From: a virus
DNA: 63,081 nucleotides
Reading direction: 5' to 3' (one strand)
IMG/VR virus record: IMGVR_UViG_3300010373_000008
Span: 1 to 63,081 of that record
Shown here: one piece after another, positions 1-46,838 of the stretch
Position numbering within the stretch: the stretch's first letter is position 1
How the letters are laid out: each line of letters starts with the position of its first letter
The notes under the pieces: model-generated
The model's database searches: none
Told to the model about the DNA's origin: nothing
What the model saw: only the letters and a program-made list of their open reading frames with translations
Translations under genes and position numbers: made by a program

Positions 1-123
1 AAGTCTTGGTCCCTAAGATCAATGTCAGCGGAACAATGACCACATCCGTCTTTGACCATGTGCATGTATTGCGCTTCTGTTAAGTTCTTACCGCGAGGTC
101 CTCGTGCAAATTTCTCTACTGGT
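1..123. repeat. Terminal direct repeat, copy A; identical to 62959..63081 (circular or terminally redundant genome, unit length 62,958 bp)
   Basis: The first 123 nt were compared base by base with the last 123 nt and are identical. The repeat lies inside a coding frame. Confidence 0.95.
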
Positions 124-1343
124 CCAAACTCATTATCCTGCTCTACATTACTCTCTTCTACTGGGAGAATGAGATCTGTCGGCTGACTGAGCAATACAAA
201 TCGTTTCATGATCGAGCTTGTCTTGTGGGTTTCATCTCGCACTCCCAACGCTCTAGCCCGCACAAGCATAGCCGCCTGTAGATTTTCCATAAGATGCGGG
301 GTACGTACTTCCATGACGGCGTGGATAACCTCACCTTCCTTACCTGCACTAATAACTCCGTACACTTTCCTTGGGAAGGATTTATCTTCAGGGTTCGGCG
401 CATCGGGCGCGAATTCATATTCTCCACTAAGCTCTACCCCAATAGATTTACAAGCTGCATCACTGAATCTTTCCTGCACAGTGTGAGTATCTGTAGATGT
501 AGTAGAGAGTAAGATACCTCCATATGCACTCTCTGTCTTATCTTCCCAAGCTCCCTTCTGTGCATTCCAGTACCGTCCAGAAGAATAGTTCGTGCTATTG
601 TATTTAACTACAGGTTTCTCAGGAACCTTTACTGTCTTGTATTTACGAAGATCACTGACATCGAATTCGTAAATGGTATTGTCATGTGGATGCCAGATAG
701 TTTCTTCAAACTCGATACCGAAACGATTTGCTAACCAATAAAGATGGGCATGTTCGCTGGCTGCTAGCATGATATTCTTATCCTTTACAAAAGCAAAGGA
801 GATGGAGCGCTGTCCATTAGATGCGATGTAATGCTTATCCTTAGTCTGATCGTACCACACTAATGCATATGCCGCTGACGCAGGAAGATTCTGTAATGCT
901 TTTTCAGGTCCGTGCTTAAAGATTTGATAGTAGAGCCAGTCCGAATCTACTTCAAAGTCTAGTCCGTCTTCTTTACGACTAAAGCTTGGCACCCCTCCGT
1001 TATGTACACCGATGATATACTCTTGAGTATCCTCATGACTAAACGGGTGGCAGTTATCTAGGGATACTACACCGTGAGTTGCCGCACGATGATGGATGAT
1101 GGTAGCCGATGTATTGTCAGCTTCTTTAAAAAGATTCTGAGCGCCTCTCATCTGAGCAAAAGTTCCACCATCTACAGGCTGCTTAAAGATCCTGACATCC
1201 CTATTCTTCTTGACCTGATACATACCAGTGCTATCTAGTCCTCGTAGGACTCCGGTGATGCATCCGCCTAGTAGAAATTCTCCAAGCTTGACATTGTGTA
1301 CGCGATTCTTTTCACCATTAAACAGAGCTAGAATTCCACACAT
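1..1343 (-). CDS. Class-II (Ntn) glutamine amidotransferase-like protein, N-terminal part; the gene continues at 62847..63081
   Basis: Own translation from ATG 1343..1341 gives MCGILALFNGEKNRV...IIHHRAATHGVVSLDNCHPF. This shows the Cys2 nucleophile and the R-x-x-T-x-G...N-x-x-P-F pattern. The frame stays open to the window edge, so it is missing from the ORF track. The C-terminal part carries CGHC...CSMC cysteine pairs. Confidence 0.75.
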   Translation of the reverse strand, partial: MCGILALFNGEKNRVHNVKLGEFLLGGCITGVLRGLDSTGMYQVKKNRDVRIFKQPVDGGTFAQMRGAQNLFKEADNTSATIIHHRAATHGVVSLDNCHPFSHEDTQEYIIGVHNGGVPSFSRKEDGLDFEVDSDWLYYQIFKHGPEKALQNLPASAAYALVWYDQTKDKHYIASNGQRSISFAFVKDKNIMLAASEHAHLYWLANRFGIEFEETIWHPHDNTIYEFDVSDLRKYKTVKVPEKPVVKYNSTNYSSGRYWNAQKGAWEDKTESAYGGILLSTTSTDTHTVQERFSDAACKSIGVELSGEYEFAPDAPNPEDKSFPRKVYGVISAGKEGEVIHAVMEVRTPHLMENLQAAMLVRARALGVRDETHKTSSIMKRFVLLSQPTDLILPVEESNVEQDNEFGPVEKFARGPRGKNLTEAQYMHMVKDGCGHCSADIDLRDQD

Positions 1344-1354
1344 AATTTTATTCC

Positions 1355-2668
1355 TTAATCTAGGTAAGTTAACTGAAAGTTGATCATTCCAACCACTCTC
1401 CCGCTGCGCACATCTGTCCATGTTAGATGTCCGGGGCGAGTGTCACGCGGCCGTAGATTTCCCATGTCGCGCGTAGGAAATAGATCTCCCACAGGAGGTC
1501 TGCGTGGAATAGGTTGCTCAGGAATAGCCTGCTGAATTTGCCATGGGTTAGCGCCTATCCTATTCAGTTGTTCGGCTAATCTCCCCCTTCTTTCGGCCGG
1601 ACCATTGCGCAGACCGAGCGGATCGCCATCCAGCATCACACGCGGAATCGCTACTTCCTCGTCCTCAGGCGAGCTCGCTTTCTTGGTCTTGGGCTTAGTA
1701 AGCTTCGCTTTTTTAGCGGCAAGCAACCTACTCGGCCGTCCGGGCCAAGAAGACTCAGGAACTTGGAATAGTTTTACAGTTGAGCGTAGTTGAATTAGCT
1801 CTGCTGTAATCAACGCTTCTTGAAAAGAGCGCTCGTCGTACATAGGAGCTAGGACTCGGGTCCACTTACCGAAGACCTTACTGAAGAATTCCGTACCTCC
1901 AAGTTTCCGGGCGTACTGAATCACATCCCCCTTGAATTCTTTCGCAAACTTCTTACAGCATAGGATGACATTGATCCAATCTATGATTCGATTGTAATCG
2001 AAGGTAGTAGGAAGATGTCGAAACTCTAGAGTTCCAAACTTAGCTAGAGGAAGGAGATTGATAGCTTGATACTTGCTGAGTAGTCCTCGATCCTCGTGAA
2101 AATAATCCCATAAATTACCCGCCTCTCCTCGGCGAAAGATAATGTTAGGATCCATTACGTTGCTACGTAATTTGTCCCATCCAAATAGCACCTCAGACAG
2201 TGCTCCGAAGTCTGCTTGGCTATCTCCATAGGCATCACAGAACCCACACGCCCGACGATTCTCGCCGGCATAGGCGAACATCGCTGGCTCCATGATGATA
2301 CACGTCTGCATCATACGTGCAAGCTCCAGAGGATCTGTCTCATTCATGTCAGTGGCATCCAGGTGAATGTGAATGCCAGCCCTAGGGTATCCTATCGAAT
2401 ACTTATTCTTCAGCGCATAGGAACAGATCCACGCCACGGCATCCGTAAGATCCTTACCGACTAGCCCTCCATTCGTGACGAACTCTCGTCCATTTACCTT
2501 AAGAGAATGATCCTCTTTAGAGGACCACATCGGACTTAGATCATTCCACTTGAGGGCTTTCTCTACCTCAACTTCCACCCCGATCTTAGCTCCTGGAATA
2601 GCTAGATCATTAGTCTCAATTGGAATAGAGTGCCTAGGTTTACCGAATATCTGAGCTACACTGGCCAT
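1355..2668 (-). CDS. Glutamine-synthetase-like amidoligase (Amidoligase_2-type COOH-NH2 ligase) with a Pro/Arg-rich C-terminal tail
   Basis: 437-aa ORF with the motifs IGVEVEVEKA, GIHIHLD and GTLEFRH, typical of GS-fold amidoligases. TAA stop. Confidence 0.65.
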   Translation of the reverse strand: MASVAQIFGKPRHSIPIETNDLAIPGAKIGVEVEVEKALKWNDLSPMWSSKEDHSLKVNGREFVTNGGLVGKDLTDAVAWICSYALKNKYSIGYPRAGIHIHLDATDMNETDPLELARMMQTCIIMEPAMFAYAGENRRACGFCDAYGDSQADFGALSEVLFGWDKLRSNVMDPNIIFRRGEAGNLWDYFHEDRGLLSKYQAINLLPLAKFGTLEFRHLPTTFDYNRIIDWINVILCCKKFAKEFKGDVIQYARKLGGTEFFSKVFGKWTRVLAPMYDERSFQEALITAELIQLRSTVKLFQVPESSWPGRPSRLLAAKKAKLTKPKTKKASSPEDEEVAIPRVMLDGDPLGLRNGPAERRGRLAEQLNRIGANPWQIQQAIPEQPIPRRPPVGDLFPTRDMGNLRPRDTRPGHLTWTDVRSGRVVGMINFQLTYLD

Positions 2669-2671
2669 ATA

Positions 2672-3043
2672 TTATTCCTCTTCTTCCCACTCGATCTTTA
2701 CAGTATCCATTACAGTATCAATACGATTGAGAACGGTAACGGTTGCATCAGCCGCTTCAACAGCCTCTTCTTTGGAAGAGAAGATGCGTCCGATAGCATA
2801 TCTTAATGGGGTAAATCCTTCATTACGGTAAACATTACACCATCCTTCTTTCTTTACCTTATTAGGTAGAAGATTACACTTAGTGACCATCGAGCACGTC
2901 CCGTCCTCTTCGTATCTCCTCATAGTTCCGAGGACATCGGTAGCCAGAAATGGCGCACCTGCTCCGCGATTAACTAATCGTCCTTCGATCAGCCAAGTAT
3001 CTCCAAAACTATCTTTGTAAGACTTACCTACTTCAATCTTCAT
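2672..3043 (-). CDS. Hypothetical protein
   Basis: 123-aa ORF, tightly packed in the same-strand array. Confidence 0.6.
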   Translation of the reverse strand: MKIEVGKSYKDSFGDTWLIEGRLVNRGAGAPFLATDVLGTMRRYEEDGTCSMVTKCNLLPNKVKKEGWCNVYRNEGFTPLRYAIGRIFSSKEEAVEAADATVTVLNRIDTVMDTVKIEWEEEE

Positions 3044-3256
3044 TTATCGCTCCGTTTCACTACGTTGCATGTTTTTATGCACAACGGCATCAGAATGTGA
3101 CCATCCTCCATCACGCGCTCTACTCTGCCACGTAAGAGCCTTCACTGTATGAAGTCTAGCATCATTAAAGTCTCCGTCAGTTCTAGCAAGCCCCGCCATT
3201 TCCCAATGCTGGTCGGAGATACTCAAACACTTCTTAGCAGAATAAAATGTACTCAC
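3044..3256 (-). CDS. Hypothetical protein
   Basis: 70-aa ORF. Its start overlaps the stop of the upstream gene. Confidence 0.5.
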   Translation of the reverse strand: MSTFYSAKKCLSISDQHWEMAGLARTDGDFNDARLHTVKALTWQSRARDGGWSHSDAVVHKNMQRSETER

Positions 3257-3615
3257 GACCAGTCTCCCGATGCGATGATCCTTTTGTCGGAGGTGTAGTC
3301 CTTACTGATCTGATAGATAGATACGTGTTCTTCGGTATCTGTTTCTACAATCTCTCGTGTATAGAAGTTGTTATCAGCAGCGCCTTCTCGATATCCTTCA
3401 AGCCTATCCAGCCGGCGAAGAGTATCATTGTCTACTTCATACAGCTCTACCTGTACTGTTCCCGGTTCGTCTAAGCGCACTCCGGGAAATCCACCTAGAT
3501 GATACATGCGTCCTTTAACAGATGCCTTACCTAGGAATTTAGAGTCGGTCAGCAGGCGATGATTACCATGACCTTGCTTCAGTGTACCGTATACAGCTAC
3601 TTTAGTTAGTGACAT
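3253..3615 (-). CDS. Gamma-glutamylcyclotransferase-like (AIG2/GGACT fold) protein
   Basis: Motifs VAVYGTLKQGHGNHRLL...GRMYHLGGFPGV...VQVELYEV. The likely start is ATG at 3615; the ORF track extends it to TTG at 3621. Confidence 0.65.
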   Translation of the reverse strand: MSLTKVAVYGTLKQGHGNHRLLTDSKFLGKASVKGRMYHLGGFPGVRLDEPGTVQVELYEVDNDTLRRLDRLEGYREGAADNNFYTREIVETDTEEHVSIYQISKDYTSDKRIIASGDWS

Positions 3616-3722
3616 TTGCAATTTCCTCCATTTGGTAGGTCTGTTATAATATCTACTAATAGCCCAAATGTAGCTATGCCGAGGGCAATCAAGAGAATAA
3701 TACCAAGTTCATACCATTCCAT
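3606..3722 (-). CDS. Small membrane protein (38 aa)
   Basis: Own translation: MEWYELGIILLIALGIATFGLLVDIITDLPNGGNCKCH. It has a stop/start overlap with both neighbours. Below the ORF-track size cutoff. Confidence 0.4.
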   Translation of the reverse strand: MEWYELGIILLIALGIATFGLLVDIITDLPNGGNCKCH

Positions 3723-4345
3723 CATCGCACCGAACTCATTTCAAATAGCCGTTGGGCGGCATCGTCCAAGAAGTTCCAGTGAACTCCGTCCGGAGATACG
3801 GCTACATGGATACCTCTAAGATGAAGTTGGTACTCCGCTCCTTCAAGCATTCCGATAGTGACCGCCCAGCTAGCGCTGAGTGCAAATCCAGTTGCCTTAG
3901 GATCCTCTTGCAGCCTGCGCACGGCATCACCTAACGTAATGTACGTAGGATTATACACCGAATCTGCAATGGCGTCAGTGATAGTCTTTACAGTGAGAGT
4001 AGTTCCATCAAGTTCGTACCAGTATTCCTTACATGCTGCGGGGATTGTGAACGATACAGCAGTACTGTTAAATCCCTTTGAGGTATGTCGAATAGCTCGA
4101 CGCTGTGCATGCCATACATAATGTCCACTAGGATCTGTACGGTATCCGAGTTCGGGACACTTGACATGCTCCCACTCTAAGGAGTTGATATCAATCGATA
4201 CGCCCTTACCTTTGGATTGCAGATACAAATGATTCGGCTGCTCTGTACACTGTCCCATACATTTATGAGGAATGCCTGTAGTAGGATGCACGATCCAAGA
4301 GTTAAGATAGTATCTGTGTAAGTCAGCGATGTTGTATAGATTCAT
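3722..4345 (-). CDS. Hypothetical protein within the ligase cluster
   Basis: 207-aa ORF, overlap-coupled to both neighbours. Confidence 0.6.
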   Translation of the reverse strand: MNLYNIADLHRYYLNSWIVHPTTGIPHKCMGQCTEQPNHLYLQSKGKGVSIDINSLEWEHVKCPELGYRTDPSGHYVWHAQRRAIRHTSKGFNSTAVSFTIPAACKEYWYELDGTTLTVKTITDAIADSVYNPTYITLGDAVRRLQEDPKATGFALSASWAVTIGMLEGAEYQLHLRGIHVAVSPDGVHWNFLDDAAQRLFEMSSVR

Positions 4346-5196
4346 TATACTTCTCTCTCCGCAGGAACCGCCTCAAAGTCATTCCAAAGTTTGTTGTATA
4401 GTTTACTCAATTCAGAAGGCCAAACTTCTCTAGACACAGCCTCTTGAATAGCAGCACTGTGTGCCTCGATAGATTTGAATAGAACCCTAGCTTTCTCTGG
4501 ACGAGTCAACACCAGATCTAGTGCCCTATACATTGTATCTACTCCCATATGTACAGGATCCGCGAGCCAGTAATTACTAGGAGTTCTGTATTCAATACCG
4601 TAATCCTTTACTCGATACAATCCAGCTAGTCCATAGAACTTCCTTCGTTCACCTTGCTTATCGAATCCATTAGCCAATACATACCCTCCATAACCCATCA
4701 CTTCGATGAACTGAATGAGTGCCCACGGAGGGATCCCTGCATTCTTAACATCGTACCCAAAATGGATATGACCTCCCGCGAATCGATTCAATCCTACTTC
4801 CTTCACGCTAGGAGGACGTCGCATGTTACCCCTTTCCCAAGCGTTAAAGTCCGGATCGCATCCGAATGTCATAGCCTGCTCAGATCGCAAATCTTCCTCC
4901 GAGAATTTATGAGAGGGACTTATGTGCAAGTTAGCATTGGGGATGTAATCTCGTACGATCTTCTTTAGATCTGTAACAGATTGCCGAACCGCCGATGCAA
5001 AAGTTTGCACAGTATTGTAGGCGTTGATGTTGAATTCTAACGTTACTCCGTCCTCTTGAATCTTCAGTCCATGACGATGCCCTGCGATAGGATGGGGTTC
5101 TTCCTTAGTCCCTGGAATCAATCCGACACAGGGGATAACTTTCTTATTACCTCCAATTACAAATACCTCAGGATCCGTACCGATCATAATTGACAT
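4345..5196 (-). CDS. phiEco32-like COOH-NH2 ligase type 2 (GS-like amidoligase)
   Basis: Motifs MIGTDPEVFV, LEFNINA, GGHIHFG and GIEYRTPSNYW match the phage COOH-NH2 ligase family pattern. Confidence 0.65.
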   Translation of the reverse strand: MSIMIGTDPEVFVIGGNKKVIPCVGLIPGTKEEPHPIAGHRHGLKIQEDGVTLEFNINAYNTVQTFASAVRQSVTDLKKIVRDYIPNANLHISPSHKFSEEDLRSEQAMTFGCDPDFNAWERGNMRRPPSVKEVGLNRFAGGHIHFGYDVKNAGIPPWALIQFIEVMGYGGYVLANGFDKQGERRKFYGLAGLYRVKDYGIEYRTPSNYWLADPVHMGVDTMYRALDLVLTRPEKARVLFKSIEAHSAAIQEAVSREVWPSELSKLYNKLWNDFEAVPAEREV

Positions 5197-5204
5197 AATA
5201 GTTC

Positions 5205-5579
5205 TCAGTCTTTTAGAGGCGCGCGCGCCAGTTTGTAGGATGTTGGTACATATACAGGTTTAACAGGAGCTACGATCACTGGTGGATTTTTAATCTTGAT
5301 CCTCGGTTTCATTTTAGAATCTGATTTTAGGTTAGGTATTGGATCGTATTCTGGAATGGACGCACCTACTTCTGATCTAGGATACTCACGTTCGTAGGTA
5401 TAGTCATGCTGTTTCCAGTTATTGGATACCCAAATATTGAGAAGTACCTGTCCCTCCCTTAGCTTCTTTACAACAGCATCCATGATCTTGGAACTAGATC
5501 TCTTCTTGATCCAAACAAACCCGAAAGAATGCTTTAGATTCTTGTCACGAACTTTGTACACTGCAATTGTATTCTCCAT
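5205..5579 (-). CDS. Hypothetical protein
   Basis: ORF 5205..5618. The internal ATG at 5579 avoids overlapping the ATP-grasp gene. Confidence 0.55.
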   Translation of the reverse strand: MENTIAVYKVRDKNLKHSFGFVWIKKRSSSKIMDAVVKKLREGQVLLNIWVSNNWKQHDYTYEREYPRSEVGASIPEYDPIPNLKSDSKMKPRIKIKNPPVIVAPVKPVYVPTSYKLARAPLKD

Positions 5580-5586
5580 TATTTCC

Positions 5587-6399
5587 TCATAACATCCTAG
5601 CCCTGAAGGCTTCGACATAGGCGTTAAGACTTGACTCTGCTTCCAAAGCAGGAGCAGAATTAATCTCTACCACAACTTTATTCATGCTGTCGTGGTTAAC
5701 TAAGATGTCAACAGCACAGTGATTAGCACCAACTGCCCTCGCTGCATCTAACGCCAGAACCCCAAGCTCAGCGCGGTAATTACGAGTATCGCAGCTAAGA
5801 TCTTGCACGGTAAACACCCAGCCGTTAGCTCTGGTTCGTACCAACGTATCAACATCGGCTCCATTTTCCTTCCTCTTCTGTTGAATTAGAATGACATTGC
5901 CGTAACAAACGTGCACTCGATATTCAGCGTGCTTCCTGAAGTATCGTGTGTACAAAGGAGCTACGGGAATAGGCTGCCCTCGACGGACGATCTCTAGGCC
6001 AGCACCGCTGTGTCCTGTGACAGTATGACGCACGACAATCTTACCATCTTCCCTCATCCAACGGTTAAGAGCTTCATCGTCATTTGGATTTCCATCCACC
6101 GCCGTGGCAAGTTCAATAGCTTCCTGTGTAACCCAGCTCACACAAGGTACATGTGCCCGCGATAAGCTCCTGAAAGTACCAATCTTATCAGAGCAAAAGA
6201 TAACCGACTGAGCTGTATTACTGTAGGTCAGATTGCGTTGTACCAACTGATTCTGAGGCTGCCCTACTCCCCAGTTGATTACAAATCTGTCACCGCGAGT
6301 ACGTCGGGTAGATCCTGAAGTAATTAAGCCTACGCCTAGAGCTTCTGCTAGTCTGCGAGCAGACCTAGATCCTCGATTGCGAAGTACATTTACAATCAT
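5587..6399 (-). CDS. ATP-grasp (RimK-like) ligase
   Basis: 270 aa with HTVTGHSGAGLEIV, EYRVHVCYGNVILIQQKRK and CAVDILVNHD..VVVEINSAPAL. Confidence 0.65.
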   Translation of the reverse strand: MIVNVLRNRGSRSARRLAEALGVGLITSGSTRRTRGDRFVINWGVGQPQNQLVQRNLTYSNTAQSVIFCSDKIGTFRSLSRAHVPCVSWVTQEAIELATAVDGNPNDDEALNRWMREDGKIVVRHTVTGHSGAGLEIVRRGQPIPVAPLYTRYFRKHAEYRVHVCYGNVILIQQKRKENGADVDTLVRTRANGWVFTVQDLSCDTRNYRAELGVLALDAARAVGANHCAVDILVNHDSMNKVVVEINSAPALEAESSLNAYVEAFRARML

Positions 6400-6818
6400 T
6401 TCTCTACTGCCTGTTTGATGATGACATACATATGCCTTACCATATTATCACTGTTAGGGTTCATGTAGTACGGAGAGACGTGAGCTTTGCATGTATAAAT
6501 ATATCTCTCCATCGGCTTCCCTGATCCGATAATTTTAAATGATCTTTTAGGAACGTGGTCGAATAATAATTCATCAGCAATTCCTCCCTCTTTATCATGA
6601 AGAAATAAGGATCCTATCCCAGGAATACATGACTTAATTATATCCTCAAGCAGTGCATCCTCACTACTATTAATTAGCATATCCCAATTTTTTTTACCAT
6701 CGTTGATAGGAGCAGGAGTCCGTCGGAAACTATGAAGTACATGACCTGCACAAAATCCTGGCACGTCATCACCCTTCATTGACAAATAGTTTCTGGGTCC
6801 TATTTTAAAGGTGGTCAT
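6396..6818 (-). CDS. Hypothetical protein, paralog of 6815..7399
   Basis: Carries PGFCAGHVLHS, compared with PGCCGLRIIHS in the neighbour. ATG at 6818 overlaps the upstream stop (ATGA). Confidence 0.55.
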   Translation of the reverse strand: MTTFKIGPRNYLSMKGDDVPGFCAGHVLHSFRRTPAPINDGKKNWDMLINSSEDALLEDIIKSCIPGIGSLFLHDKEGGIADELLFDHVPKRSFKIIGSGKPMERYIYTCKAHVSPYYMNPNSDNMVRHMYVIIKQAVEK

Positions 6819-7399
6819 GATTCGTACGCTCCCGCAACAGGAAGTCCTAGAGGATCGTTGCCTACCAATGTCTTGGGAACCATAGCCCAAGTGATTACGT
6901 TTCTACCACTATTGTTTGTGGTACAACTTAAGCGTTGAAAGGAATATTTATCGTTCAGGATTAAATTCAGCCACTTAGCAGTGTGGTAAAGAGTTCCTCC
7001 TTTGACATCTGCAAAGATGATTGTCTTGTTGGCATCTACATATAAATTATCAGCTAGTTTCATGTAATAGATAAAATCCTCTATACTAGAATGAAACTCT
7101 AGTGCGTAAGGCGGCACTGGAAGTCTGGGCTTGTCTACTACATAACCCGCACCGTAAGACGAATGTATGATCCTTAATCCGCAACATCCGGGATAAGGTG
7201 AGAACGAGACTTCCACTAATAGATGAGGATCTGTTATTGCTTTAGTGAAATCATCCCCTTTCAGTTTGCGTCGAAATGCTTCTTCAGAGCAAGGAGCGCA
7301 ACCTTTCAGTAGCTCCTTACCGGGTATAGCATTGTATGCATCCCAATCACGAAGTTTGATATAGTGTTTCTGATAAGAGAACATGGAATCACACCCCAT
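6815..7399 (-). CDS. Hypothetical protein, paralog of 6396..6818
   Basis: 194-aa ORF sharing the PG-x-C-[AG]...HS motif. Confidence 0.55.
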   Translation of the reverse strand: MGCDSMFSYQKHYIKLRDWDAYNAIPGKELLKGCAPCSEEAFRRKLKGDDFTKAITDPHLLVEVSFSPYPGCCGLRIIHSSYGAGYVVDKPRLPVPPYALEFHSSIEDFIYYMKLADNLYVDANKTIIFADVKGGTLYHTAKWLNLILNDKYSFQRLSCTTNNSGRNVITWAMVPKTLVGNDPLGLPVAGAYES

Positions 7400-7634
7400 T
7401 CAGTGAATTGTAGAGAGGGATATCAGAGAGTTTAAATCCAATTGGATTCTCTCGAATAATTCGTACCGGCATCTTTACATCAAACACACATTCATTCTTG
7501 AAGTTGTTAACGTCTACGGCAGTGCTGGCTCCTACCTTGACGTAGATCTTATCGTTCTTAACCGTAGTACCATCAGAACGACGATCGTCACGAAGAGCAC
7601 GGAACATGTTACCAATCTTTAGGTCATTAAACAT
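7389..7634 (-). CDS. Hypothetical protein
   Basis: 81-aa ORF in the same-strand array. Confidence 0.5.
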   Translation of the reverse strand: MFNDLKIGNMFRALRDDRRSDGTTVKNDKIYVKVGASTAVDVNNFKNECVFDVKMPVRIIRENPIGFKLSDIPLYNSLNGV

Positions 7635-7645
7635 TTGTAATCTCC

Positions 7646-7954
7646 TTAAAGAACTTCGACGAATTTACGGGTAATCACGACGCCCGTTGTCGAGAAAACC
7701 TGCGCTTCGGTTTCGGACTTATGGTTCTGCCCCGATAGTCTGCCAGCTTCGTATTCATTTACATAAATTACCCTAGGTTCGGGCTTAATTCGATAATTCC
7801 AGGCAGGCCTGTTAAAACTTACAGTACCGTCGTCCTCAACATCTATCCAACGGGACAGAGCGCCAGGAGGAGTTGCCGCCAGGATCTGAATTGTAGCACC
7901 TTCTCCAAAGGCTTGGATGATAGGCAGTAATGCCAAAGCATCTTGACGTTTCAT
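7646..7954 (-). CDS. Hypothetical protein, member of a 3-copy paralog family
   Basis: Shares NYRIKPEPR with 9654..9977. Confidence 0.55.
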   Translation of the reverse strand: MKRQDALALLPIIQAFGEGATIQILAATPPGALSRWIDVEDDGTVSFNRPAWNYRIKPEPRVIYVNEYEAGRLSGQNHKSETEAQVFSTTGVVITRKFVEVL

Positions 7955-8018
7955 TATTGATTCCTGAGGTTGATAGTATAGAAAGGTTCGTATCGAACGA
8001 ATACAGCTAATGGAAGGG

Positions 8019-8318
8019 TCATTCAGGTACCTCTACCATTTTAATGACGCGCCCATCGGAGGGGGCGTAACTCAACGCGCTTTCTTTCATATCGAAGAAA
8101 ACAACGTCTTCATGTTCTCCTTCGGTAACTACTGCCCATTTAACCAAGGGTCCCTGGTTTACTCGATAATCAAAACGCGCCCAATCCCATGAAGGTTCTG
8201 GACCTGCGTCCCGATTCCAGAGAGCGTAGTCAGTATTGCCGTAGCCGCCCCACCATTCAATCTGCTTACCGTCCACAAATGCCTGCATCACTGCGATCTT
8301 TTCTGCTGTAGTTTTCAT
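8019..8318 (-). CDS. Hypothetical protein, member of a 3-copy paralog family
   Basis: Shares AFVDGK-IE with 9654..9977. Confidence 0.55.
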   Translation of the reverse strand: MKTTAEKIAVMQAFVDGKQIEWWGGYGNTDYALWNRDAGPEPSWDWARFDYRVNQGPLVKWAVVTEGEHEDVVFFDMKESALSYAPSDGRVIKMVEVPE

Positions 8319-8636
8319 TTAGATATCCTTGTAGACGGCAAAAGCGTCGTCATACGTAGGTACGTTATCCACTCCTCCCTCAAGTCCCCACAATAGATAC
8401 TTACCGGAAAACATAGCGCGTTTAGCTAACGTACGTCCTGACTTACGATTGAATTGATCTCCTTTAGAGCATCGTACGATTGACAATTTCCATGTCATAT
8501 CACCTGCAATCGCCGCATGTCGACGAGCAAACACCGTAGCATTGGTGTATTCCTTACCTTTCTTGCTGATGTGTGATTCGCGAATCTGGAAGTAAAGTTC
8601 CGGGGTAGTTGTGGATTTGCGGATTGCTTGAGTCAT
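8319..8636 (-). CDS. Hypothetical protein
   Basis: 105-aa ORF. Confidence 0.55.
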   Translation of the reverse strand: MTQAIRKSTTTPELYFQIRESHISKKGKEYTNATVFARRHAAIAGDMTWKLSIVRCSKGDQFNRKSGRTLAKRAMFSGKYLLWGLEGGVDNVPTYDDAFAVYKDI

Positions 8637-8752
8637 GAGTGTTCTCCTTTTATTTTGAGCAATTAGTATGTGACAAAGTTACTACGCACTTACAACAACT
8701 GCATAGCCACGTATCGCGGCTATTTACAGTAGGGATATAATGTAACATGTGA

Positions 8753-9124
8753 TTAACTTCCTTTAAGTAGTGATGCTGCGTATTCAAGGAGATACAGCTT
8801 CGGAGCAAGGAAGATCTTTAAAGCAACTGACGCTTTAGAAGTAGCGAGAACTGACATAACTGCAATAAGGGATACAAGAATAGTTCCTAGTAGCGCCTTA
8901 GGATCTACGTCAAGTTCCCTGAAGCATTCACTTTTGATTTTGTAAATGCCATAGCCTGCACCAATTGCATAAACAACAGTTAAGAAACAAGACTCTATTC
9001 CCTTAACCAAAAGTAGTTGTTGAATAACGTCTGGGGTCTGTTCTTGTAACCAAACCCCTGTCTGAGTAGCTACTTCCATACCTCTGGTAAGAATAGCAGC
9101 TATGGCTTCGTCTTTAGTGCTCAT
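8753..9124 (-). CDS. Membrane protein
   Basis: 123 aa with hydrophobic segments FLTVVYAIGAGYGIY and LLGTILVSLIAVMSVLA. Confidence 0.55.
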   Translation of the reverse strand: MSTKDEAIAAILTRGMEVATQTGVWLQEQTPDVIQQLLLVKGIESCFLTVVYAIGAGYGIYKIKSECFRELDVDPKALLGTILVSLIAVMSVLATSKASVALKIFLAPKLYLLEYAASLLKGS

Positions 9125-10770: not shown

Positions 10771-10847
10771 TGGAACCCCCGCCGAGAATCGAACTCGGAG
10801 TCTCAAGCTTAGAAGGCAAGCGTTTTATCCAATTAAACTACGAGGGC
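10771..10847 (-). tRNA. tRNA-Arg (anticodon UCU), CCA encoded
   Basis: 77-nt cloverleaf: GCCCTCG/CGGGGGT acceptor stem, GTTT/AAAC D stem, anticodon loop CTTCTAA, CCGAG-TTCGATT-CTCGG T arm. The anticodon stem has two U-U mismatches. Confidence 0.65.
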
Positions 10848-34565: not shown

Positions 34566-37500
34566 ATGGCGCAGGAAGATATTTGGATTCAACAGGCTAA
34601 TGACGCTATTCGTCGTGGAGCCGATCCAGCAAAAGTAGAAGCTCTTCTTATGGAGAAGATGCGCTCTGCTGGTATGGACCCTAAAGCTCCTGCTACAGCT
34701 CCTGAGAAGAAGGCTGAAGATGGGAGATATGCTAAGTTCGATAACTCTAATCTAGATAAACTAAATGCAGTTCCGGCTCGATACGGTTCCGGTTCTGTAG
34801 ACATTGGAATGCTAGATACAGGTAGATACGATACTGAAGGTAATATGTACGACGAGGATGGTCGTATTATCTTTCAATCTCCTGAGAGTAAAGAACGTAA
34901 TAATGCAGAGCGCCGTGGCGCGCAGATGGATGCCTTGGATGCTGCCAAGTACGGAGCACAGGGAGTAGCTTCTCGTACGCTACGCGGCCTAGGATTAGAT
35001 GCGAAAGTACCAGAGGCTATCTTCTCTGAAGATCAAACAGCTCAGAAAGCAGGACAAGCAGCAGGCTCGCTAGCTGCTGCTCTTCCTGTTATCCTGAATC
35101 CGTACACAGCTACTGGTTTCGGTCTAACACAAGGATCCGCAGGCTATCAAGAAGCTAGAGATGCTGGAGCTACCAAGAGTGGAGCTGCATTAGCAGGAGC
35201 TACTGAAGCAGCTCTGTTTCCTTTACAGAGATTGGTACCCGGAGCTTTGGGAGGTAATCTTGCGACTAGAATACTTACCGGAGCCGGGCTAAACGTTGGA
35301 GCTGGTATAGGTACGGATGCTGTTATGAATGCGGTTACTCCGGATGCATTGAAGAGAGATCTACTAGATCCTTATAGTAGAATTCCCGATGCTATCTTAG
35401 GCGTAGCTGCTGGCGCAGCATCTAGAGGTGCTCGTTCCCGCCCAGCAGTTCGTACTGGAGATCCTGCCATAGATGCAGGAATCAATCTAGTAGATGAGAT
35501 TTCAACTCGCACTCCTGTGCAGGGAGATCTTTTTGCGGATCAGCCAATAACTTCCAGGGATCTGTTTTCTGGTGATGAAGTCCCAGCCTCTCTTATGGAG
35601 CAGCGCCGTATTCGTCAGGAGCAAGCTCTACGAGGAGAAGAGGCACAGAGAACTGAGGCCGAGAATACTCAGCTAGAGAGGGATTATATCCTAGATCAGC
35701 AGGATCGTCTCAATGCCCAAGCGCAAGAAGGTATCGTATCAAGACAGGGAGATATTCCAGAACCCTTCATGGGACTGGCGGATACTATTCCCGCAGATGT
35801 TAATGCTCCTAATCCTCGCCAGATCTTTACTAGAGAAGGGGAGACTGTAGGAGTCAGGGATCAGCAGCCTAATTCAGCTATGGCAGATGCCATGCTGCAA
35901 GGATGGATTGATAGAGGTCAGTTGCGCAATGAGTCTACTCCAGTACCAGAGAGATCTCCTGAAGTATTTGAACCTAGCAGAACTCCAACAGTAGATCAAA
36001 CACCTGTACAACCGTCACTGGATCTAGTAGCGCAGCCTGATTTGTTTGGCAACGAGCAGATTGGCAAACCTCTAGAAACAGTTATACGTAATCCAGAAGT
36101 AGCTTACAAAGCTACTAAAGATCTAGACGTGGCTAAATCTCGTGAAGATCTCATCAGTGCAATCAAATCTGGAGGACAGCCTTTGTTCGCAGAGGCATTG
36201 CCCGATGGTAAGATTGTATCTAAAGGAGCACCTGCACACCTTCTAGATGCTTTGCGTAATGATACCCTAACAGTACGTCAGGTATTTGACGAAGCCTCCA
36301 AGAGCCTTCCTACTGATCCGGAAGCTAAGCAACATTCTGCTAATCTTATTAAGTATGCAGGTGCTTTGGCTGACAGGATGGGAGGTAAGGATACAGGGTT
36401 CACTGTATTAGATTCCAACAAACCCGCACATGCTCAAGTTCTATCTAGATCCGGATTACGAGAAGATCAGTTTGATGCCTTCTTTGATCCAGTTACTAAT
36501 AAGATCTATATCAAACCCTCAACTTCTGGATTCAATACTCTAGTCCACGAAGCTGTCCATGCTGTTACATCTAAGATGCTATACATGGGAGATCAGGGGG
36601 ATCTTAAAGGACCTGCACAAACGGCTTATGTAAATCTACGTAGCACTTTTGAAGATCTACTGAAACCTGAACTAACAGCTCGTGCTTCTGAATTACCTAA
36701 GGGAATGCAGCGTAGACTTAGTGAGTATGGATTAACCAATCTTGATGAATTCTATTCAGAGTTCTTTAGCAATGGTGTATTCCGTAATTCATTGAAAGCC
36801 ATGAAAGTTACTCCTGAATGGACTTCTAAATTAAGTCCTATTCTAAGAGCGGCTGTAGGTAAAGCTAAGAATCTATATGATGTAGTCGTTAGTAACTTCT
36901 CTAAGATGATGGCTAAGGCAGGACTACGTAGTCAATCTGATCTTGGGCTAGCTAAGAATGCGGAATCTGCATACGAGCTAATGTTTGCAAGGATGGATAA
37001 GCTACATAATTCTATCGAAGATTCAGATGCTCAGTCCAGTAGAGAAATTAATGCTCGCAATACAACTCCTGAGATCGATACCAGTTTCCTAGGAGAGCAG
37101 GTACCTGGCCGTGATGTACTACCTTCAGATAAGTCTGAAGAACCACAGGCTCCTCGTTCTAGGTTACGTGCGGGTCTTAGGCAGGCATTTGCCACTAAAG
37201 GAATTGAACCTAAAGTCTACGACGCTCGACAGCTAGCTTCTGGAGAACAAGCTGCTGGTGCCTACAGGGCTAGTACAATCTCCAATGCGCTATCTTCTGG
37301 TCTAGATAAATCTCCAGAGTTACGTGATACTGTTCTAAATGTAATGCAAGGAAAGGAAGATCCTAGAACATTCCTGTCTTCTATAAAAGAAACTAATCCA
37401 CAGCTTCACGGGGCGGTAAGGGATTTCTTGAATGATAGACATGCCAATGCTCTAGAGTATGCTAGAACTATCGCATCTAATCCTAATGCATCTGCTGAGC

Positions 37501-40214
37501 AATTGGCATTTGCGGCCAAGGCATTGAAAAATAGTAACACCTATATCCATCGTGCCTATGAAGCTAACACTGATCCTCCTAAGAAGGGAGTAATCAAGTG
37601 GATGCAGGGCGGGTACATGGATCGTAAGTTACAGATGGCGAATTCGGCAGAGGCCAAACTAGGAAAGAACGAGAGAACTAATCTACCATTAACTGAGGAT
37701 CAGAAATCTAGATTAAAACCCGAAGAGGTTAAGAACCTAGAACAGCTACGCGCTATGAGGGGTTGGGTTAGTAATTGGCTTAAGCCTACTCCTGAAGCTC
37801 TTAATAAGATGTCTGTAGAAGATGCCGGTGAATTGTATAGGATGCATACTGGACTAGATCCAGCAGAGATCACTAGAGATATACCTAGTAATGCTGCTAA
37901 GAAAGATGCACTGATCACAGGCTATCAAGATGCGCTGTCTAAGAACTCCGACTTTAATCAGTTTGTAGATAATACCATCAAGCAGTTATCAGGACTATCT
38001 CCAGATAAGGTAGGAGCTGTAATCAAGTATACCCAGAACATGAGACTTGGTTCTGATGTATTCTCCCAGAGATCCAATGTTCCTCCTGCGCTTAGAGCTT
38101 GGTGGGGAGAGATTAAAGATCCAGTTGCGCAAGCTGTACAGACTCTATCCACGCAGACAGCTCAGATCTCTCAACTAAAAGGTCTAACTAAACTACGTGA
38201 TGATGGATTAGGAACTATCTTTACAGAGGATGCAGGAAGTAAGACTCATACGGAGATTCTATCTGGAGATAAGATGGGACCTCTTAAAGGACTACGTACT
38301 ACTCCAGACGTTAAGAAGAGTTTGGATTCCATCTTGAAGATAGATCAGAGTGCTGGCGATATTCTTGATGCTCTAGTAGCAGAGGGAAAGGATTATGAAT
38401 TAGCTAGGTACGTAGGAAGTGCTCCTCTGATATTAGCGTCTAAGCTAAGCTCAGCTAAGAAGATGTCAACGATCGTGTTTAATCAAGGTCGATGGGCTAT
38501 GAACTTCTTGGGATCCTTTGGACAGACTGTATCTAATGGTAATCTAAATCTGCCTTCATGGAAGAGAGGGGCAGAGGCTACTCTGGCAGCAATTAATTCT
38601 TCTGGAAGAAAGGTACTTAATCCTGATGTAGAGACTCTGTTTCGTAACAACATCTGGGAACCTACTCAGATTTCAGAGATCTACTCCGGAGCAGGTACCG
38701 AGCACGTTCGTAACATGCTAAAGAAAGCTGCTGGTTCTACATCTATCAAAGACATGGTTAAGTCTGGTATAGATAAAGGAATGGCAATCGCTAAGGAAGG
38801 GTACAGTTCTACTGATCTATGGACTAAGGCAGCTAACTTCTTTCATGATGTAGATGTATGGACTGAGCATTTCAAGACTCGTGATCCTAGTATGACTAAA
38901 GAGCAGATCGAAAGATTTGTTGCTGAACGTACCAACAATACCAACATCACTCCATCCAGAGCACCTACTGTTCTTAAGTCAGTAGAGAGACTAGGAGGTA
39001 CTCAGTATCTTCCTTATCAATACGAAACTTTCAGGACTACCATCAACAATCTAACTACTGGACTTAGCGACGCTAAGGAAGGAGCTAAGACTGGAGATAT
39101 GAGGCTCATGAGGAATGGTATTCAGAGGTTAATGGGGGCAGGTCCTGCTATGCTTTATTCGCAGACTGCTTTCCACGCAGGCTTGGCAGCAAGTTTGTCA
39201 GCTCTAGGTTATGCTGTATCTACACTAGATCCTGACGACGAAAGGCGCAAGCACTTAGATCTGGATCCTAGTCATTTAGGCTCTGAGGTAGTAGTTCTTA
39301 CAGACGATAAAGGAAAGGAATGGACCATTGATGTAGGACAGTTACCTCCTATGGATCCAGCCATGAGACCTACTAGTTCTGTTATAGATGCTGTTATGAA
39401 GTTAGGGCAGGGAGATACCAAGGGTGCAGAGAAGTCTATCACTGATGCTGGAAAGCAGATGTGGGGATTAGTATCCTCTAACTCTATGTATCGTAATCTA
39501 CTCAAAACTGTTACCGGTAAGGATCCTAGTACTGCTCGTAGCAATCCTGACATGTATGACGCAGCTCAGAAAGCAGGACAAGAACTTGGTATTGATAAGG
39601 AAAATATCAATAGGATCATGAATCTAACTGAGATCTTTGTACCTAAAGGAGCTGCTGAAACAGCTAGAGCCATTAACTCCAAGACTGATCAGTCAATCAA
39701 GAATCTTATTGGGGGCGGTCTAGGTGTCAGAGAGTTAAGTCCTTTGAAAGACCTTAATGCTTACTTCGGATATGAGCGTAAAGAGAAACTGCAAGAAGCT
39801 AAGCAAGCATATGCAGATATGCTCAAGCAGAACTTCCCAGTTGCTCCTGAAGCTGTGGAGAAGAAGTTTGTTAGTGGACTGAAGGATGCCGCTAAACCTT
39901 ATGCCGAGTTACAGCAGGCAGTAAGAGCAGCTAAAGAGCAAGGAGTTCAGCGTAAAGATCTGACTTCTGTTCTTAAGGGGATGGGTTTAAGTGAGGATAT
40001 GCAGACTGCTATCCTGCGAGGACGTAAGTTCCCGGTATCTTTTATGATCACGGAGTTAGAGAAAGATCTAGAACAGCGTATGCTCAAGAACATTGACGAT
40101 CCCGCCAAGAAGACTGAACTACGTAAGCTATACCGCGATAACACACGTCTGATTAATAGACTGTACAAGAAGTACCGCAATGTAGACATAGAGGAATTAG
40201 TTAATGGCAAGTAA
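34566..40214 (+). CDS. Giant internal-virion/ejection protein candidate with a zincin HExxH motif
   Basis: 1882 aa. Single motif: IYIKPSTSGFNTLVHEAVHAVTSK. Confidence 0.5.
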   Translation: MAQEDIWIQQANDAIRRGADPAKVEALLMEKMRSAGMDPKAPATAPEKKAEDGRYAKFDNSNLDKLNAVPARYGSGSVDIGMLDTGRYDTEGNMYDEDGRIIFQSPESKERNNAERRGAQMDALDAAKYGAQGVASRTLRGLGLDAKVPEAIFSEDQTAQKAGQAAGSLAAALPVILNPYTATGFGLTQGSAGYQEARDAGATKSGAALAGATEAALFPLQRLVPGALGGNLATRILTGAGLNVGAGIGTDAVMNAVTPDALKRDLLDPYSRIPDAILGVAAGAASRGARSRPAVRTGDPAIDAGINLVDEISTRTPVQGDLFADQPITSRDLFSGDEVPASLMEQRRIRQEQALRGEEAQRTEAENTQLERDYILDQQDRLNAQAQEGIVSRQGDIPEPFMGLADTIPADVNAPNPRQIFTREGETVGVRDQQPNSAMADAMLQGWIDRGQLRNESTPVPERSPEVFEPSRTPTVDQTPVQPSLDLVAQPDLFGNEQIGKPLETVIRNPEVAYKATKDLDVAKSREDLISAIKSGGQPLFAEALPDGKIVSKGAPAHLLDALRNDTLTVRQVFDEASKSLPTDPEAKQHSANLIKYAGALADRMGGKDTGFTVLDSNKPAHAQVLSRSGLREDQFDAFFDPVTNKIYIKPSTSGFNTLVHEAVHAVTSKMLYMGDQGDLKGPAQTAYVNLRSTFEDLLKPELTARASELPKGMQRRLSEYGLTNLDEFYSEFFSNGVFRNSLKAMKVTPEWTSKLSPILRAAVGKAKNLYDVVVSNFSKMMAKAGLRSQSDLGLAKNAESAYELMFARMDKLHNSIEDSDAQSSREINARNTTPEIDTSFLGEQVPGRDVLPSDKSEEPQAPRSRLRAGLRQAFATKGIEPKVYDARQLASGEQAAGAYRASTISNALSSGLDKSPELRDTVLNVMQGKEDPRTFLSSIKETNPQLHGAVRDFLNDRHANALEYARTIASNPNASAEQLAFAAKALKNSNTYIHRAYEANTDPPKKGVIKWMQGGYMDRKLQMANSAEAKLGKNERTNLPLTEDQKSRLKPEEVKNLEQLRAMRGWVSNWLKPTPEALNKMSVEDAGELYRMHTGLDPAEITRDIPSNAAKKDALITGYQDALSKNSDFNQFVDNTIKQLSGLSPDKVGAVIKYTQNMRLGSDVFSQRSNVPPALRAWWGEIKDPVAQAVQTLSTQTAQISQLKGLTKLRDDGLGTIFTEDAGSKTHTEILSGDKMGPLKGLRTTPDVKKSLDSILKIDQSAGDILDALVAEGKDYELARYVGSAPLILASKLSSAKKMSTIVFNQGRWAMNFLGSFGQTVSNGNLNLPSWKRGAEATLAAINSSGRKVLNPDVETLFRNNIWEPTQISEIYSGAGTEHVRNMLKKAAGSTSIKDMVKSGIDKGMAIAKEGYSSTDLWTKAANFFHDVDVWTEHFKTRDPSMTKEQIERFVAERTNNTNITPSRAPTVLKSVERLGGTQYLPYQYETFRTTINNLTTGLSDAKEGAKTGDMRLMRNGIQRLMGAGPAMLYSQTAFHAGLAASLSALGYAVSTLDPDDERRKHLDLDPSHLGSEVVVLTDDKGKEWTIDVGQLPPMDPAMRPTSSVIDAVMKLGQGDTKGAEKSITDAGKQMWGLVSSNSMYRNLLKTVTGKDPSTARSNPDMYDAAQKAGQELGIDKENINRIMNLTEIFVPKGAAETARAINSKTDQSIKNLIGGGLGVRELSPLKDLNAYFGYERKEKLQEAKQAYADMLKQNFPVAPEAVEKKFVSGLKDAAKPYAELQQAVRAAKEQGVQRKDLTSVLKGMGLSEDMQTAILRGRKFPVSFMITELEKDLEQRMLKNIDDPAKKTELRKLYRDNTRLINRLYKKYRNVDIEELVNGK

Positions 40215-45624: not shown

Positions 45625-45766
45625 TAATCAGCTTGATCTGTGTAGTGCTAAACATACCGGCAGCCCATTTGGAAGCTGTAGCAATTCCGTACTTATCTTT
45701 CATCTCTCTTAGACGATTAGTCCAACGAGCTACCATCTTAGGGTGGTCAATAATTACTTGACCCAT
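45599..45766 (-). CDS. Small protein (55 aa)
   Basis: Own translation: MGQVIIDHPKMVARWTNRLREMKDKYGIATASKWAAGMFSTTQIKLINEQLKNNN. Its ATG overlaps the upstream TGA. Confidence 0.4.
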   Translation of the reverse strand: MGQVIIDHPKMVARWTNRLREMKDKYGIATASKWAAGMFSTTQIKLINEQLKNNN

Positions 45767-46707: not shown

Positions 46708-46838
46708 GACATGTCCTCGTAATACAGGCTGTGTCTCTTACCGCACTTACTACACTCGTATGATTCTTTCTCGTAGTCACTGTATGTCATTACGAAATCG
46801 TGATCACACGCACTGATTCTAGCAACTGTATCAGTCAT
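46704..46838 (-). CDS. Small zinc-ribbon-like protein (44 aa)
   Basis: Own translation: MTDTVARISACDHDFVMTYSDYEKESYECSKCGKRHSLYYEDMS. Confidence 0.4.
   Translation of the reverse strand: MTDTVARISACDHDFVMTYSDYEKESYECSKCGKRHSLYYEDMS

Follow-up and report, generated by a model that had tools for sequence, protein, structure and literature searches.

The DNA analysed here, the 63,081 nucleotides of viral IMG/VR record IMGVR_UViG_3300010373_000008 (hereafter the window, meaning this whole stretch), carries a cluster of genes for enzymes which make and break amide bonds. On the evidence of profile matches, gene content and position, this locus is a rearranged copy of the amidoligase module known from phages of the phiEco32 and LUZ24 type, not a new system, and it is an early/middle operon lying just upstream of the replication genes. 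The core of the module, as we define it, comprises a COOH-NH2 ligase (CNL), a protein of about 200 amino acids (aa) labelled g06, an Amidoligase_2 enzyme (AL2), a class-II glutamine amidotransferase (GAT, or GATase) with a zinc ribbon, one or two RimK-like ATP-grasp ligases and at least one enzyme which cleaves gamma-glutamyl amides, i.e., a GGACT-type cyclotransferase in the window and a Peptidase_C26 (C26) in most other phages. This gene content, with catalytic residues intact in the window proteins, is conserved and linked over about 130 loci. The function we favour, with a probability somewhat short of even, is a gamma-glutamyl-centred build-and-trim pathway acting on a low-molecular-weight amine, whose product would be a small molecule or moiety and not a protein tag.

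The window contains CNL, AL2, class-II GATase, ATP-grasp, GGACT and g06, positioned upstream of primase/helicase genes. In UFV-P2 and other LUZ24-like phages, genes for COOH-NH2_lig, an unknown protein, Amidoligase_2, GATase, ATP-grasp and AIG2/GGCT stand directly before primase/helicase (PMC3890496), and we confirmed the series in Bruynoghevirus PhiCHU (gp24-gp32), Kuravirus phiEco32 (gp86 down to gp75), Pantoea phage TacPo2 and E. coli phage PJNS034. An initial annotation, made from the letters of the window alone, had implied that the cluster was unusual, a view contradicted by the same module in the same position in cultured phiEco32, Bruynoghevirus, TacPo2, PJNS034 and Stenotrophomonas phage StenR_269. 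Its remark that comparative genomics had noted such enzyme combinations in phages agrees with Iyer et al. 2009, as far as the statement quoted in PMC10580990 goes, and with the gene lists of PMC3890496.

Gene layout and enzyme families

Eleven minus-strand open reading frames (ORFs) fill the window from 7399 down to 1, and the GATase gene runs on to 62847. Neighbouring ORFs are joined by ATGA or TAATG overlaps or separated by gaps of 3-11 nt, and codon usage prefers the annotated frame in 11/11 cluster ORFs, in agreement with the contiguous leftward run described by the initial annotation. The wrap to 62847 is a trivial matter of assembly. The first 123 bases (1-123) are an exact duplicate of the last 123 (62959-63081), and the same sequence is present in ENA assembly ERZ27256675 as a MEGAHIT k141 contig of 63,099 bp with a 141-bp overlap; hence the window represents a phage genome of 62,958 bp (GC 44.6%) assembled as a circle, and the wrap is an assembly duplication, not, as far as can be told, a biological terminal repeat. 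Unnamed ORFs are labelled g00-g12, and the features of the cluster are as follows.

7389-7634: g12, homologous to the gene directly before ATP-grasp in the related contig L065
6815-7399 (-): g11, 194 aa, contains PGCCGLRIIHS; without relatives, lineage-specific insertion
6396-6890 (6396-6818 from the ATG at 6818) (-): g10, 140 aa, contains PGFCAGHVLHS; without relatives, lineage-specific insertion
5587-6399 (-): RimK-like ATP-grasp ligase, 270 aa, phrog_2599
5205-5618, likely start 5579 (-): g08, 124-137 aa, without family match
4345-5196 (-): CNL, phiEco32-type, 283 aa
3722-4345 (-): g06, 207 aa, conserved core partner from a phage-only family
3606-3725 (-): hydrophobic mini-ORF of 39 aa, occupying the g06-GGACT gap
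3253-3621, likely ATG 3615 (-): GGACT/AIG2-type gamma-glutamyl(amine) cyclotransferase, 120-122 aa
3044-3256 (-): g04, 70 aa, without relatives, probably outside the system
2672-3043 (-): g03, 123 aa, without relatives, probably outside the system
1355-2668 (-): AL2, 437 aa, catalytic part about 1-340 plus a Pro/Arg-rich tail of about 100 aa
1-1343 (-): class-II N-terminal nucleophile (Ntn) GATase, residues 1-447 of 484, ATG at 1343 followed by Cys2
62847-62958 (-): C-terminal end of the GATase, residues 448-484 and stop, with the second CxxC of the zinc ribbon
62024-62845 (-): g00, 273 aa, directly downstream of the GATase

The two ligases are predicted to adopt the glutamine synthetase (GS)-type (GCS/GS) fold, from the Pfam family descriptions and conserved Glu/His/Arg motifs. 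CNL matched COOH-NH2_lig (PF14395) at 4.5e-7, with 29.8 bits against a Pfam cut-off of 25, and phrog_3815 at 1.2e-50; it keeps all 28 family-invariant residues, among them D8, E10, K31, D49, E54, C113, D116, R138, H143, H145, R184, E202 and R204. With 19 bits against Amidoligase_2 (PF12224), the AL2 protein of the window falls below the cut-off of 22 when taken alone, and it matched phrog_7469 at 7e-36; PF12224 is matched by 28/28 aligned AL2 relatives, and the family-invariant residues E32, E34, D53, S55, E62, H100, H102, E127, R138, E215 and R217 are all kept. Neither the CNL nor the AL2 profile found a sequence match among PDB chains at E up to 10. A profile-profile comparison of the two (hhalign) gave E 0.0033 over 42 columns only, around the GGH.H motif, and their description as two GS-like paralogues is therefore not demonstrable by sequence. 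Arg and Pro make up 14% and 12%, respectively, of the final 100 aa of AL2, as compared with about 5% each in its catalytic part. This is the tail which had been noted as unusual, and it is not conserved in the closest relatives: alignments to L065, a 63.7-kb Logan contig whose proteins are about 50-60% identical, and to L003, the other close relative, end at residues 358-371.

The ATP-grasp enzyme matched phrog_2599 at 3.8e-43, and its family profile matches RimK (4iwx) at 2.1e-12 as well as alpha-L-glutamate ligases and LysX. The window protein itself is matched weakly by the NCBIfam models of MptN and CofF. Residues K72, E159, R161, K175, D231, E245 and N247, invariant in the family, are kept. 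Its score of 32.6 bits against the RimK equivalog TIGR00768 lies below the cut-off of 143.4, which makes it a RimK relative and not an orthologue.

The GATase (484 aa, starting MCGI) matched GATase_6 at 1.7e-8 and GATase_4, both above cut-off, and phrog_4736 at 6.6e-39. It consists of an Ntn domain (about 1-240), a variable middle and a C-terminal C4 zinc ribbon. Residues C2, R86, T89, G91, N97, H99, N115, G116 and D133 are conserved across 67 homologues. The Ntn domain thus keeps its nucleophile Cys and the residues which in PurF and GlmS bind glutamine and form the oxyanion hole, R86 and D133 being those for the free alpha-carboxylate and alpha-amino group of glutamine. The zinc ribbon (C434, C437, C460, C463) crosses the assembly join, its first CxxC being encoded at window positions 36-47, and CxxC-x22-CxxC occurs in 41-45 of the 67 homologues, which is nearly all of those covering these alignment columns. 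The NCBIfam glmS model TIGR01135 aligned to residues 23-126 only (33.6 bits against a cut-off of 418), and NCBIfam revealed no SIS or other synthase domain in the protein; the name 'GlmS' given to such proteins in PHROG and RefSeq is therefore a misnomer.

The cyclotransferase was recognised by PF06094 (3.3e-24) and phrog_2520 (1.1e-24), and in the source contig it is called with 120 aa. No Peptidase_C26 was found in the window, where the C26 HMM (hidden Markov model) gave no match at E up to 10; the window lineage, Bruynoghevirus and Kuravirus have GGACT only. All five enzyme families named by the initial annotation were thus recovered by profile HMM through GATase_6, COOH-NH2_lig, GGACT, phrog_2599 and, for the sub-threshold Amidoligase_2, phrog_7469 with the 28 relatives. 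The motifs which it quoted are all present, and neither the catalytic Cys2 nor the family-invariant residues have been lost.

What had appeared as a 100-nt gap between g06 and GGACT contains the 39-aa ORF, MMEWYELGIILLIALGIATFGLLVDIITDLPNGGNCKCH, which probably forms a transmembrane helix. This ORF, coupled by ATGA to the stop of g06 and overlapping the start of GGACT, is missing from L065 and L003, both of which are gapless at this position. A scan of positions 1-9000 for promoters and terminators gave counts no higher than the shuffled expectation.

Conservation of the module and the g06 protein

Comparative analysis was based on two sets of loci, together about 130. The first held 62 IMG/VR loci with a CNL relative, plus TacPo2 and PJNS034, giving 64 loci in which families were identified with iterative HMMs started from the window proteins; the second, independent set consisted of 66 GTDB contigs retrieved with the CNL profile. 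GATase and AL2 were each present in 62 of the 64 loci, ATP-grasp in 57 (often as two copies) and g06 in 53. The order CNL-g06-AL2 is invariant, often with overlapping genes, and a primase/helicase match follows the module in 46-47/64 loci. This architecture was replicated in the 66 GTDB contigs. Almost all of these are phage-sized and binned into metagenome-assembled genomes, and we found no evidence for a cellular version among them, so the system is essentially phage-restricted. Searching with CNL by tblastn returned 313 phage records, with hosts including Pseudomonas, Escherichia, Vibrio, Aeromonas and Proteus, and one crAss-like phage.

De novo clustering of the leftover neighbourhood ORFs revealed a seventh family, present in 51 loci, which is Peptidase_C26/class-I GATase (PF07722, 1e-17). 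Where at least 6 kb of flank was available on both sides, C26 and/or GGACT were found in 60/61 loci, and both occur together in seven IMG/VR and seven GTDB loci. A minimal subtype seen in the GTDB set (L080, L082, L105, L111, L115) carries CNL, two Peptidase_C26 genes and GGACT, and is devoid of AL2, class-II GATase, ATP-grasp and g06. Because this variant keeps only CNL, C26 and GGACT, it suggests that CNL and the gamma-glutamyl-cleaving enzymes may form an autonomous sub-module. A further architecture (L016-L018, L032, L036, L062 and similar) is g06-less and combines CNL with a GATase of 585-830 aa, an AL2 of about 500-595 aa and sometimes a second GATase.

By linkage and profile matches, g06 is a core member which the initial annotation missed, and the most tightly linked component of the module. 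In each of its 53 loci it lies between CNL and AL2. In the window it follows CNL directly, the stop of the one and the start of the other sharing TAATG, and is separated from AL2 by the inserted GGACT, g04 and g03. When 1.84 billion representatives were searched with its profile, relatives appeared in 554 cluster representatives at the 50%-identity level, 303 of them at E up to 1e-10. All 150 relatives listed are stand-alone proteins, mostly of about 185-216 aa, with a few shorter and probably truncated, and none of these 150 is a fusion of the 'Rosetta stone' type. Nor was a hidden g06 domain found in the g06-less loci, longer proteins included.

Positions of g06 conserved at 90% or above include D8, F9, R12, Y13, R82, Q87, R90, G91, N96, T97, Q195, E196 and D199, and a conserved Arg-rich loop, which includes R82, R86 and R90, reads R-x-P-x-R-Q-x-x-R-G-I-x-x-x-N-T. 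The termini are not conserved, and there is no invariant Lys and no conserved Cys or His. Searches against Pfam (44 members scanned), PDB by sequence profile, PHROGs, PADLOC and NCBIfam gave no match. An AF2 model built on a 143-sequence alignment from the representative-library search reached a pLDDT of 95.8 and a pTM of 0.88 (a model from eight sequences only, with a pLDDT of 45, was unusable). The modelled fold appears to be unmatched in the PDB, since Foldseek returned no match there (best E 0.12, TM <0.25). It detected a faint Tudor/SH3-like resemblance of the N-terminal barrel, and in BFVD uncharacterised phage proteins only.

The remaining small genes of the cluster are confined to narrow lineages. 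No homologue of g10, g11, g03 or g04 was found in the 64 loci, or in L003 or L065. In L065 nothing separates the g12 homologue from the ATP-grasp gene that follows it, or GGACT from AL2, hence these four genes are lineage-specific insertions. The pair g03 and g04, which gave no Pfam or PHROG match, is probably outside the system. The inclusion of g10 and g11 in the system by the initial annotation is likewise not upheld, there being no homologue in any related locus. The same is true of their supposed paralogy, which was based on a shared PG-x-C...HS pattern: BLASTP gave E = 2.6 over 11 residues, and Smith-Waterman alignment a z of 0.7, with 54/300 shuffles equal or better. The ORF g00, with its similar G-x-C-G motif, was considered as a further paralogue of g10 and g11 and rejected, as neither BLASTP nor Smith-Waterman with shuffles was significant. 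The ORF g08 is conserved in L065 and L003 only (36-39% identity) and gave no match in Pfam, PHROG, PADLOC or NCBIfam.

A possible gamma-glutamyl pathway and its rivals

All conserved families of the module make or break amides, and several of them are specific for gamma-glutamyl amides whose alpha-amino group is free. GS/GCS-type ligases make gamma-glutamyl amides via gamma-glutamyl phosphate, C26 hydrolases and GGACT cleave them, and class-II GATases bind glutamine, which is itself a gamma-glutamyl amide. Given this chemistry and the precedents of Puu, butirosin and CofF/MptN described below, we favour small-molecule build-and-trim. From family chemistry we infer how such a pathway might run, in its substrates, order of steps, complex formation and biological role alike. 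CNL and AL2 would each activate a carboxylate with ATP, giving an acyl-phosphate which is joined to an amine; the superfamily typically uses the gamma-carboxylate of glutamate, so that gamma-glutamyl-amide bonds would result. The g06 protein, translationally coupled between the ligases and equipped with an invariant Arg-rich loop, could bind or present the anionic acceptor or hold the ligases together, i.e., act as a non-catalytic presenter or scaffold. ATP-grasp would then add an alpha-linked glutamate or other amino acid to a terminal carboxylate. The GATase might supply glutamine-derived ammonia to amidate a carboxylate, or itself hydrolyse a gamma-glutamyl amide. Finally, GGACT (or C26) would remove a gamma-glutamyl group with a free alpha-amine as 5-oxoproline (or glutamate), the group having served as a transient protecting or activating group or being a by-product for recycling. 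The product could be a gamma-glutamyl-amine or short peptide-amide on a polyamine, an amino-acid derivative or similar.

The build-and-trim idea had already been put forward in the initial annotation. It gains independent comparative support from the cleaving enzyme in 60/61 complete neighbourhoods; the mechanism itself is a proposal drawn from family chemistry. Directed evolution of Bruynoghevirus produced recurrent missense mutations in amidoligase and GATase (PMC11450229), so these genes are under selection. Several points weigh against the pathway. In agreement with the initial annotation, which knew of no established substrate or product, the literature searched yielded no substrate, product, phenotype or biochemical characterisation of the enzymes. 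For CNL and AL2, no sequence relatives were detected among solved structures from which the acceptor specificity might be deduced. The role given to g06 is a guess, as neither a Cys nor a His is conserved in it and its fold is not recognisable. Seven IMG/VR and seven GTDB loci have both C26 and GGACT, which are therefore not simple substitutes, and the co-occurrence counts are raw and uncorrected for phylogeny. RimK, moreover, modifies a protein. Aravind's group predicted that phage ATP-grasp enzymes of the R2K clade target host proteins (PMC4431377).

These last two points also favour an unlikely rival, in which the ligases put glutamate or short peptide tags on a host or phage protein, with g06 as target or adaptor and GGACT and GATase as erasers. 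RimK, to which the ATP-grasp profile is closest, glutamylates ribosomal protein S6, and two putative GS-superfamily ligases around a small conserved protein recall PafA/Dop and Pup; g06, whose gene always stands between those of the ligases, has acidic residues which are conserved (D8, E196, D199). However, no Lys in it is invariant and neither of its termini is conserved, it is a well-folded 200-aa protein unlike disordered tags, and the g06-less loci retain all enzymes. Furthermore, GGACT and C26 act on free gamma-glutamyl compounds with a free alpha-amine. Modification of the cell envelope, by amidation or extension of peptidoglycan precursors or another envelope polymer so as to block superinfection or aid lysis, we consider decidedly improbable. 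Peptidoglycan stems do contain gamma-linked D-Glu and free carboxylates, which are amidated by GATase-dependent MurT/GatD and AsnB-type enzymes and extended by ATP-grasp ligases, and a hydrophobic 39-aa ORF lies within the cluster. A role in cell-wall modification and superinfection exclusion was the original prediction for phiEco32 (Iyer et al. 2009, in the words quoted in PMC10580990). Against this, the core proteins have no signal peptide or membrane segment, judged from their translations by eye only, the mini-ORF lacks conservation, genes for a Mur ligase, transpeptidase or flippase are not linked to the module in the approximately 130 loci, and the module accompanies replication genes and not lysis genes.

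That same position, immediately before primase/helicase in most loci, would suit a nucleotide or DNA hypermodification in which the ligases attach an amino-acid-derived group to a base or nucleotide, as would the zinc ribbon of the GATase and the Arg-rich loop of g06. Lee et al. found amidoligase and glutamine-amidotransferase domains near thymidine-hypermodification genes in viral metagenome contigs (PMC8989533). Yet a scan of about 40 window proteins, in which small ORFs were not exhaustively covered, gave only ThyX, ribonucleotide reductase, a MazG-like protein, exonucleases and polymerase. A thymidine or base hypermodification cluster was rejected on this basis, there being no dUMP hydroxymethylase, TET/JBP, 5-hmdU DNA kinase, aGPT-Pplase(-like), DpdA or QueC-type gene among those proteins, and modified bases for phiEco32/LUZ24-like phages are not reported in the literature retrieved; we regard such a role as very improbable. 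Least probable of all, and scarcely credible, is an auxiliary nitrogen metabolism which boosts host ammonium/glutamine assimilation or glutathione-like synthesis during infection. It was proposed for Phage-ZRK32, whose GATase, amidoligase, 'glutathione synthase' and GGCT were read as nitrogen auxiliary metabolic genes alongside phage-dependent growth stimulation with nitrate/ammonium (eLife, PMC10945688). That growth evidence is indirect, and the enzymes of the module are far from GlnA, GshA/B and GlmS, with NCBIfam scores about 10-fold under cut-offs and no PDB sequence matches for CNL and AL2. The CNL family is nearly restricted to phage-sized contigs, and the dedicated phage-only partner g06 points to a specialised product. 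PADLOC, which covers anti-phage defence and candidate systems, gave no match for 10 cluster proteins.

A bolder reading, which we hold to be doubtful, would see CNL, g06 and AL2 as a phage-specific three-part machine, with g06 as a new carrier or specificity subunit, making a gamma-glutamyl-linked compound or modification undescribed in phages and with GGACT or C26 deprotecting it. If true, the product could be, e.g., a modified polyamine or peptide-amide serving genome packaging, host takeover or counter-defence. Few multi-enzyme gene sets of unassigned function are as widespread in lytic phages as this module, which occurs in Pseudomonas therapy phages of Bruynoghevirus, in Kuravirus, in marine OM43 and crAss-like phages and in hundreds of lineages from metagenomes. 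With its product known, a conserved early/middle function during infection would be explained, and misleading labels, among them 'GlmS', 'S6 glutaminyl transferase' and 'nitrogen auxiliary metabolic genes', would be put right. The window itself adds little beyond the cultured phages, in which function can be better addressed. The comparative results, i.e., g06 as obligatory partner, the near-universal cleaving enzyme and the conserved zinc ribbon of the GATase, narrow the hypothesis to gamma-glutamyl-amide chemistry.

Genome setting and known systems

The phage genome is divided into a plus-strand arm (about 17.7-45.3 kb) with portal, major head, tail-fibre and terminase-like proteins, and a minus-strand arm running from about 17.5 kb through position 1 to about 45.4 kb, which holds early genes, then the amidoligase cluster, then replication genes. 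The latter encode primase, DnaB-like helicase, PolA, ribonucleotide reductase, ThyX, 5'-3' exonuclease and a polymerase exonuclease subunit, the first two of which lie next to the cluster.

61440-62285 (-): primase, in the order GATase, g00, primase
60115-61329 (-): helicase, next after the primase

The unit conserved in the window lineage reaches one gene beyond the GATase, to g00, which always follows the GATase there. It is conserved in L065 (13901-14761) and L003 (5631-6467) only, with 32-36% identity, and matched nothing in Pfam, PHROG, PADLOC or NCBIfam. Its conserved motifs TGNCG(L/F) and N-x-AH-P/S-GGDSII-x-C, which precede a Ser/Thr/Lys-rich tail, make a Cys/His enzyme possible. At 62024-62285 (-) the g00 tail shares about 260 nt, in a different frame, with the N-terminal zinc-finger region of the primase (CPFC...CHRASC). 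Both frames align to L065 and L003, which have an equally long overlap, and codon-usage scores are intermediate for both; this may be either true overprinting or a mis-set end of g00.

Elsewhere in the genome, a tRNA-Arg(TCT) was found at 10771-10847 (-) by ARAGORN and Rfam, and the early arms of phiEco32 and StenR_269 also carry a tRNA-Arg. An ORF of 1882 aa (34566-40214, +), without PHROG match, may encode an N4-like virion RNA polymerase, since it is 24% identical over 548 aa to a giant 'putative virion-associated RNA polymerase' of StenR_269. The DNA polymerase is in two parts (45766-46332 and 56518-58371, both -), with the 3'-5' exonuclease subunit (phrog_403) about 10 kb from the PolA polymerase domain, and ribonucleotide reductase, ThyX, a lysozyme-like protein and the 5'-3' exonuclease between them. 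A 123-aa protein at 46831-47202 (-) matches phrog_801 (MazG-like dATP/dGTP pyrophosphohydrolase) and phrog_2252, and is adjoined by an endonuclease VII-like protein at 47195-47578.

Four characterised systems offer partial parallels to the module. Pupylation (PafA/Dop and Pup) employs two GS-superfamily enzymes and a small dedicated protein in gamma-glutamyl-amide chemistry, and the window likewise encodes two putative GS-superfamily enzymes with a small dedicated protein. A pupylation-like system was nevertheless rejected: CNL and AL2 are barely related to each other and lack a PDB match, and g06 is folded, with termini that are not conserved, and is not Pup-like. Among solved or curated proteins, the alpha-L-glutamate ligases RimK, LysX, CofF and MptN come closest to the window ATP-grasp, in which the Mg/ATP ligands are conserved; CofF and MptN, of the RimK family, extend the tails of cofactors with alpha-Glu. 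Unlike these ligases, the window enzyme scores far below family cut-offs and has no S6-like, LysW-like or cofactor context. In butirosin biosynthesis, BtrJ (ATP-grasp) installs a gamma-glutamyl group which BtrG (GGCT-fold) removes as 5-oxoproline. The window shares this combination of ATP-dependent ligase and GGCT-fold enzyme, whereas butirosin also uses an acyl carrier protein and a transferase, neither of which is linked in the phage module. The E. coli Puu pathway transiently gamma-glutamylates an amine by means of PuuA, a GS-like gamma-glutamylputrescine synthetase, and PuuD, a gamma-glutamyl-GABA hydrolase of the Peptidase_C26 family. Most phage loci similarly pair a putative GS-superfamily carboxylate-amine ligase with Peptidase_C26. 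The window differs in having GGACT instead of C26, ligases of PF14395 and PF12224, and extra ligases, class-II GATase and g06, and no oxidase or dehydrogenase steps like those of Puu are linked to the phage module.

Positions 1-7700 had no DNA match in 50,697 phage records, and the nearest cultured phages by PolA are StenR_269 (45% identity) and Xanthomonas phage DES1 (44%), which represent the closest cultured backbone. Their replication arm resembles that of the window, with primase, DnaB-like helicase, ribonucleotide reductase, ThyX and 5'-3' exonuclease. The StenR_269 module contains g06, AL2, GATase, ATP-grasp and GGCT as in the window, but another GS-like enzyme replaces CNL (the CNL HMM gave no match), and there is an additional short GATase. 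The same families as in the window stand immediately before primase/helicase in phiEco32 (gp77-gp86) and Bruynoghevirus (LUZ24, PaP3, PhiCHU gp24-gp30, UFV-P2 ORF21-29), namely CNL, a protein of about 200 aa in the g06 position, AL2, a GATase of about 480-680 aa, ATP-grasp and GGCT. PhiCHU gp25 matches the g06 HMM at 1e-5, and phiEco32 gp85 aligns to the g06 profile with E 0.0023, its DF..YY.GTW and P.RQ...G motifs in register. Proteins of the window are about 30-37% identical to those of phiEco32/Bruynoghevirus, with no DNA similarity. The window differs from these phages in its gene order, with ATP-grasp first and GGACT between g06 and AL2, and in its separate primase and helicase genes, and it alone carries the inserts g10, g11, g03, g04 and the 39-aa ORF and the Pro/Arg-rich tail of AL2.

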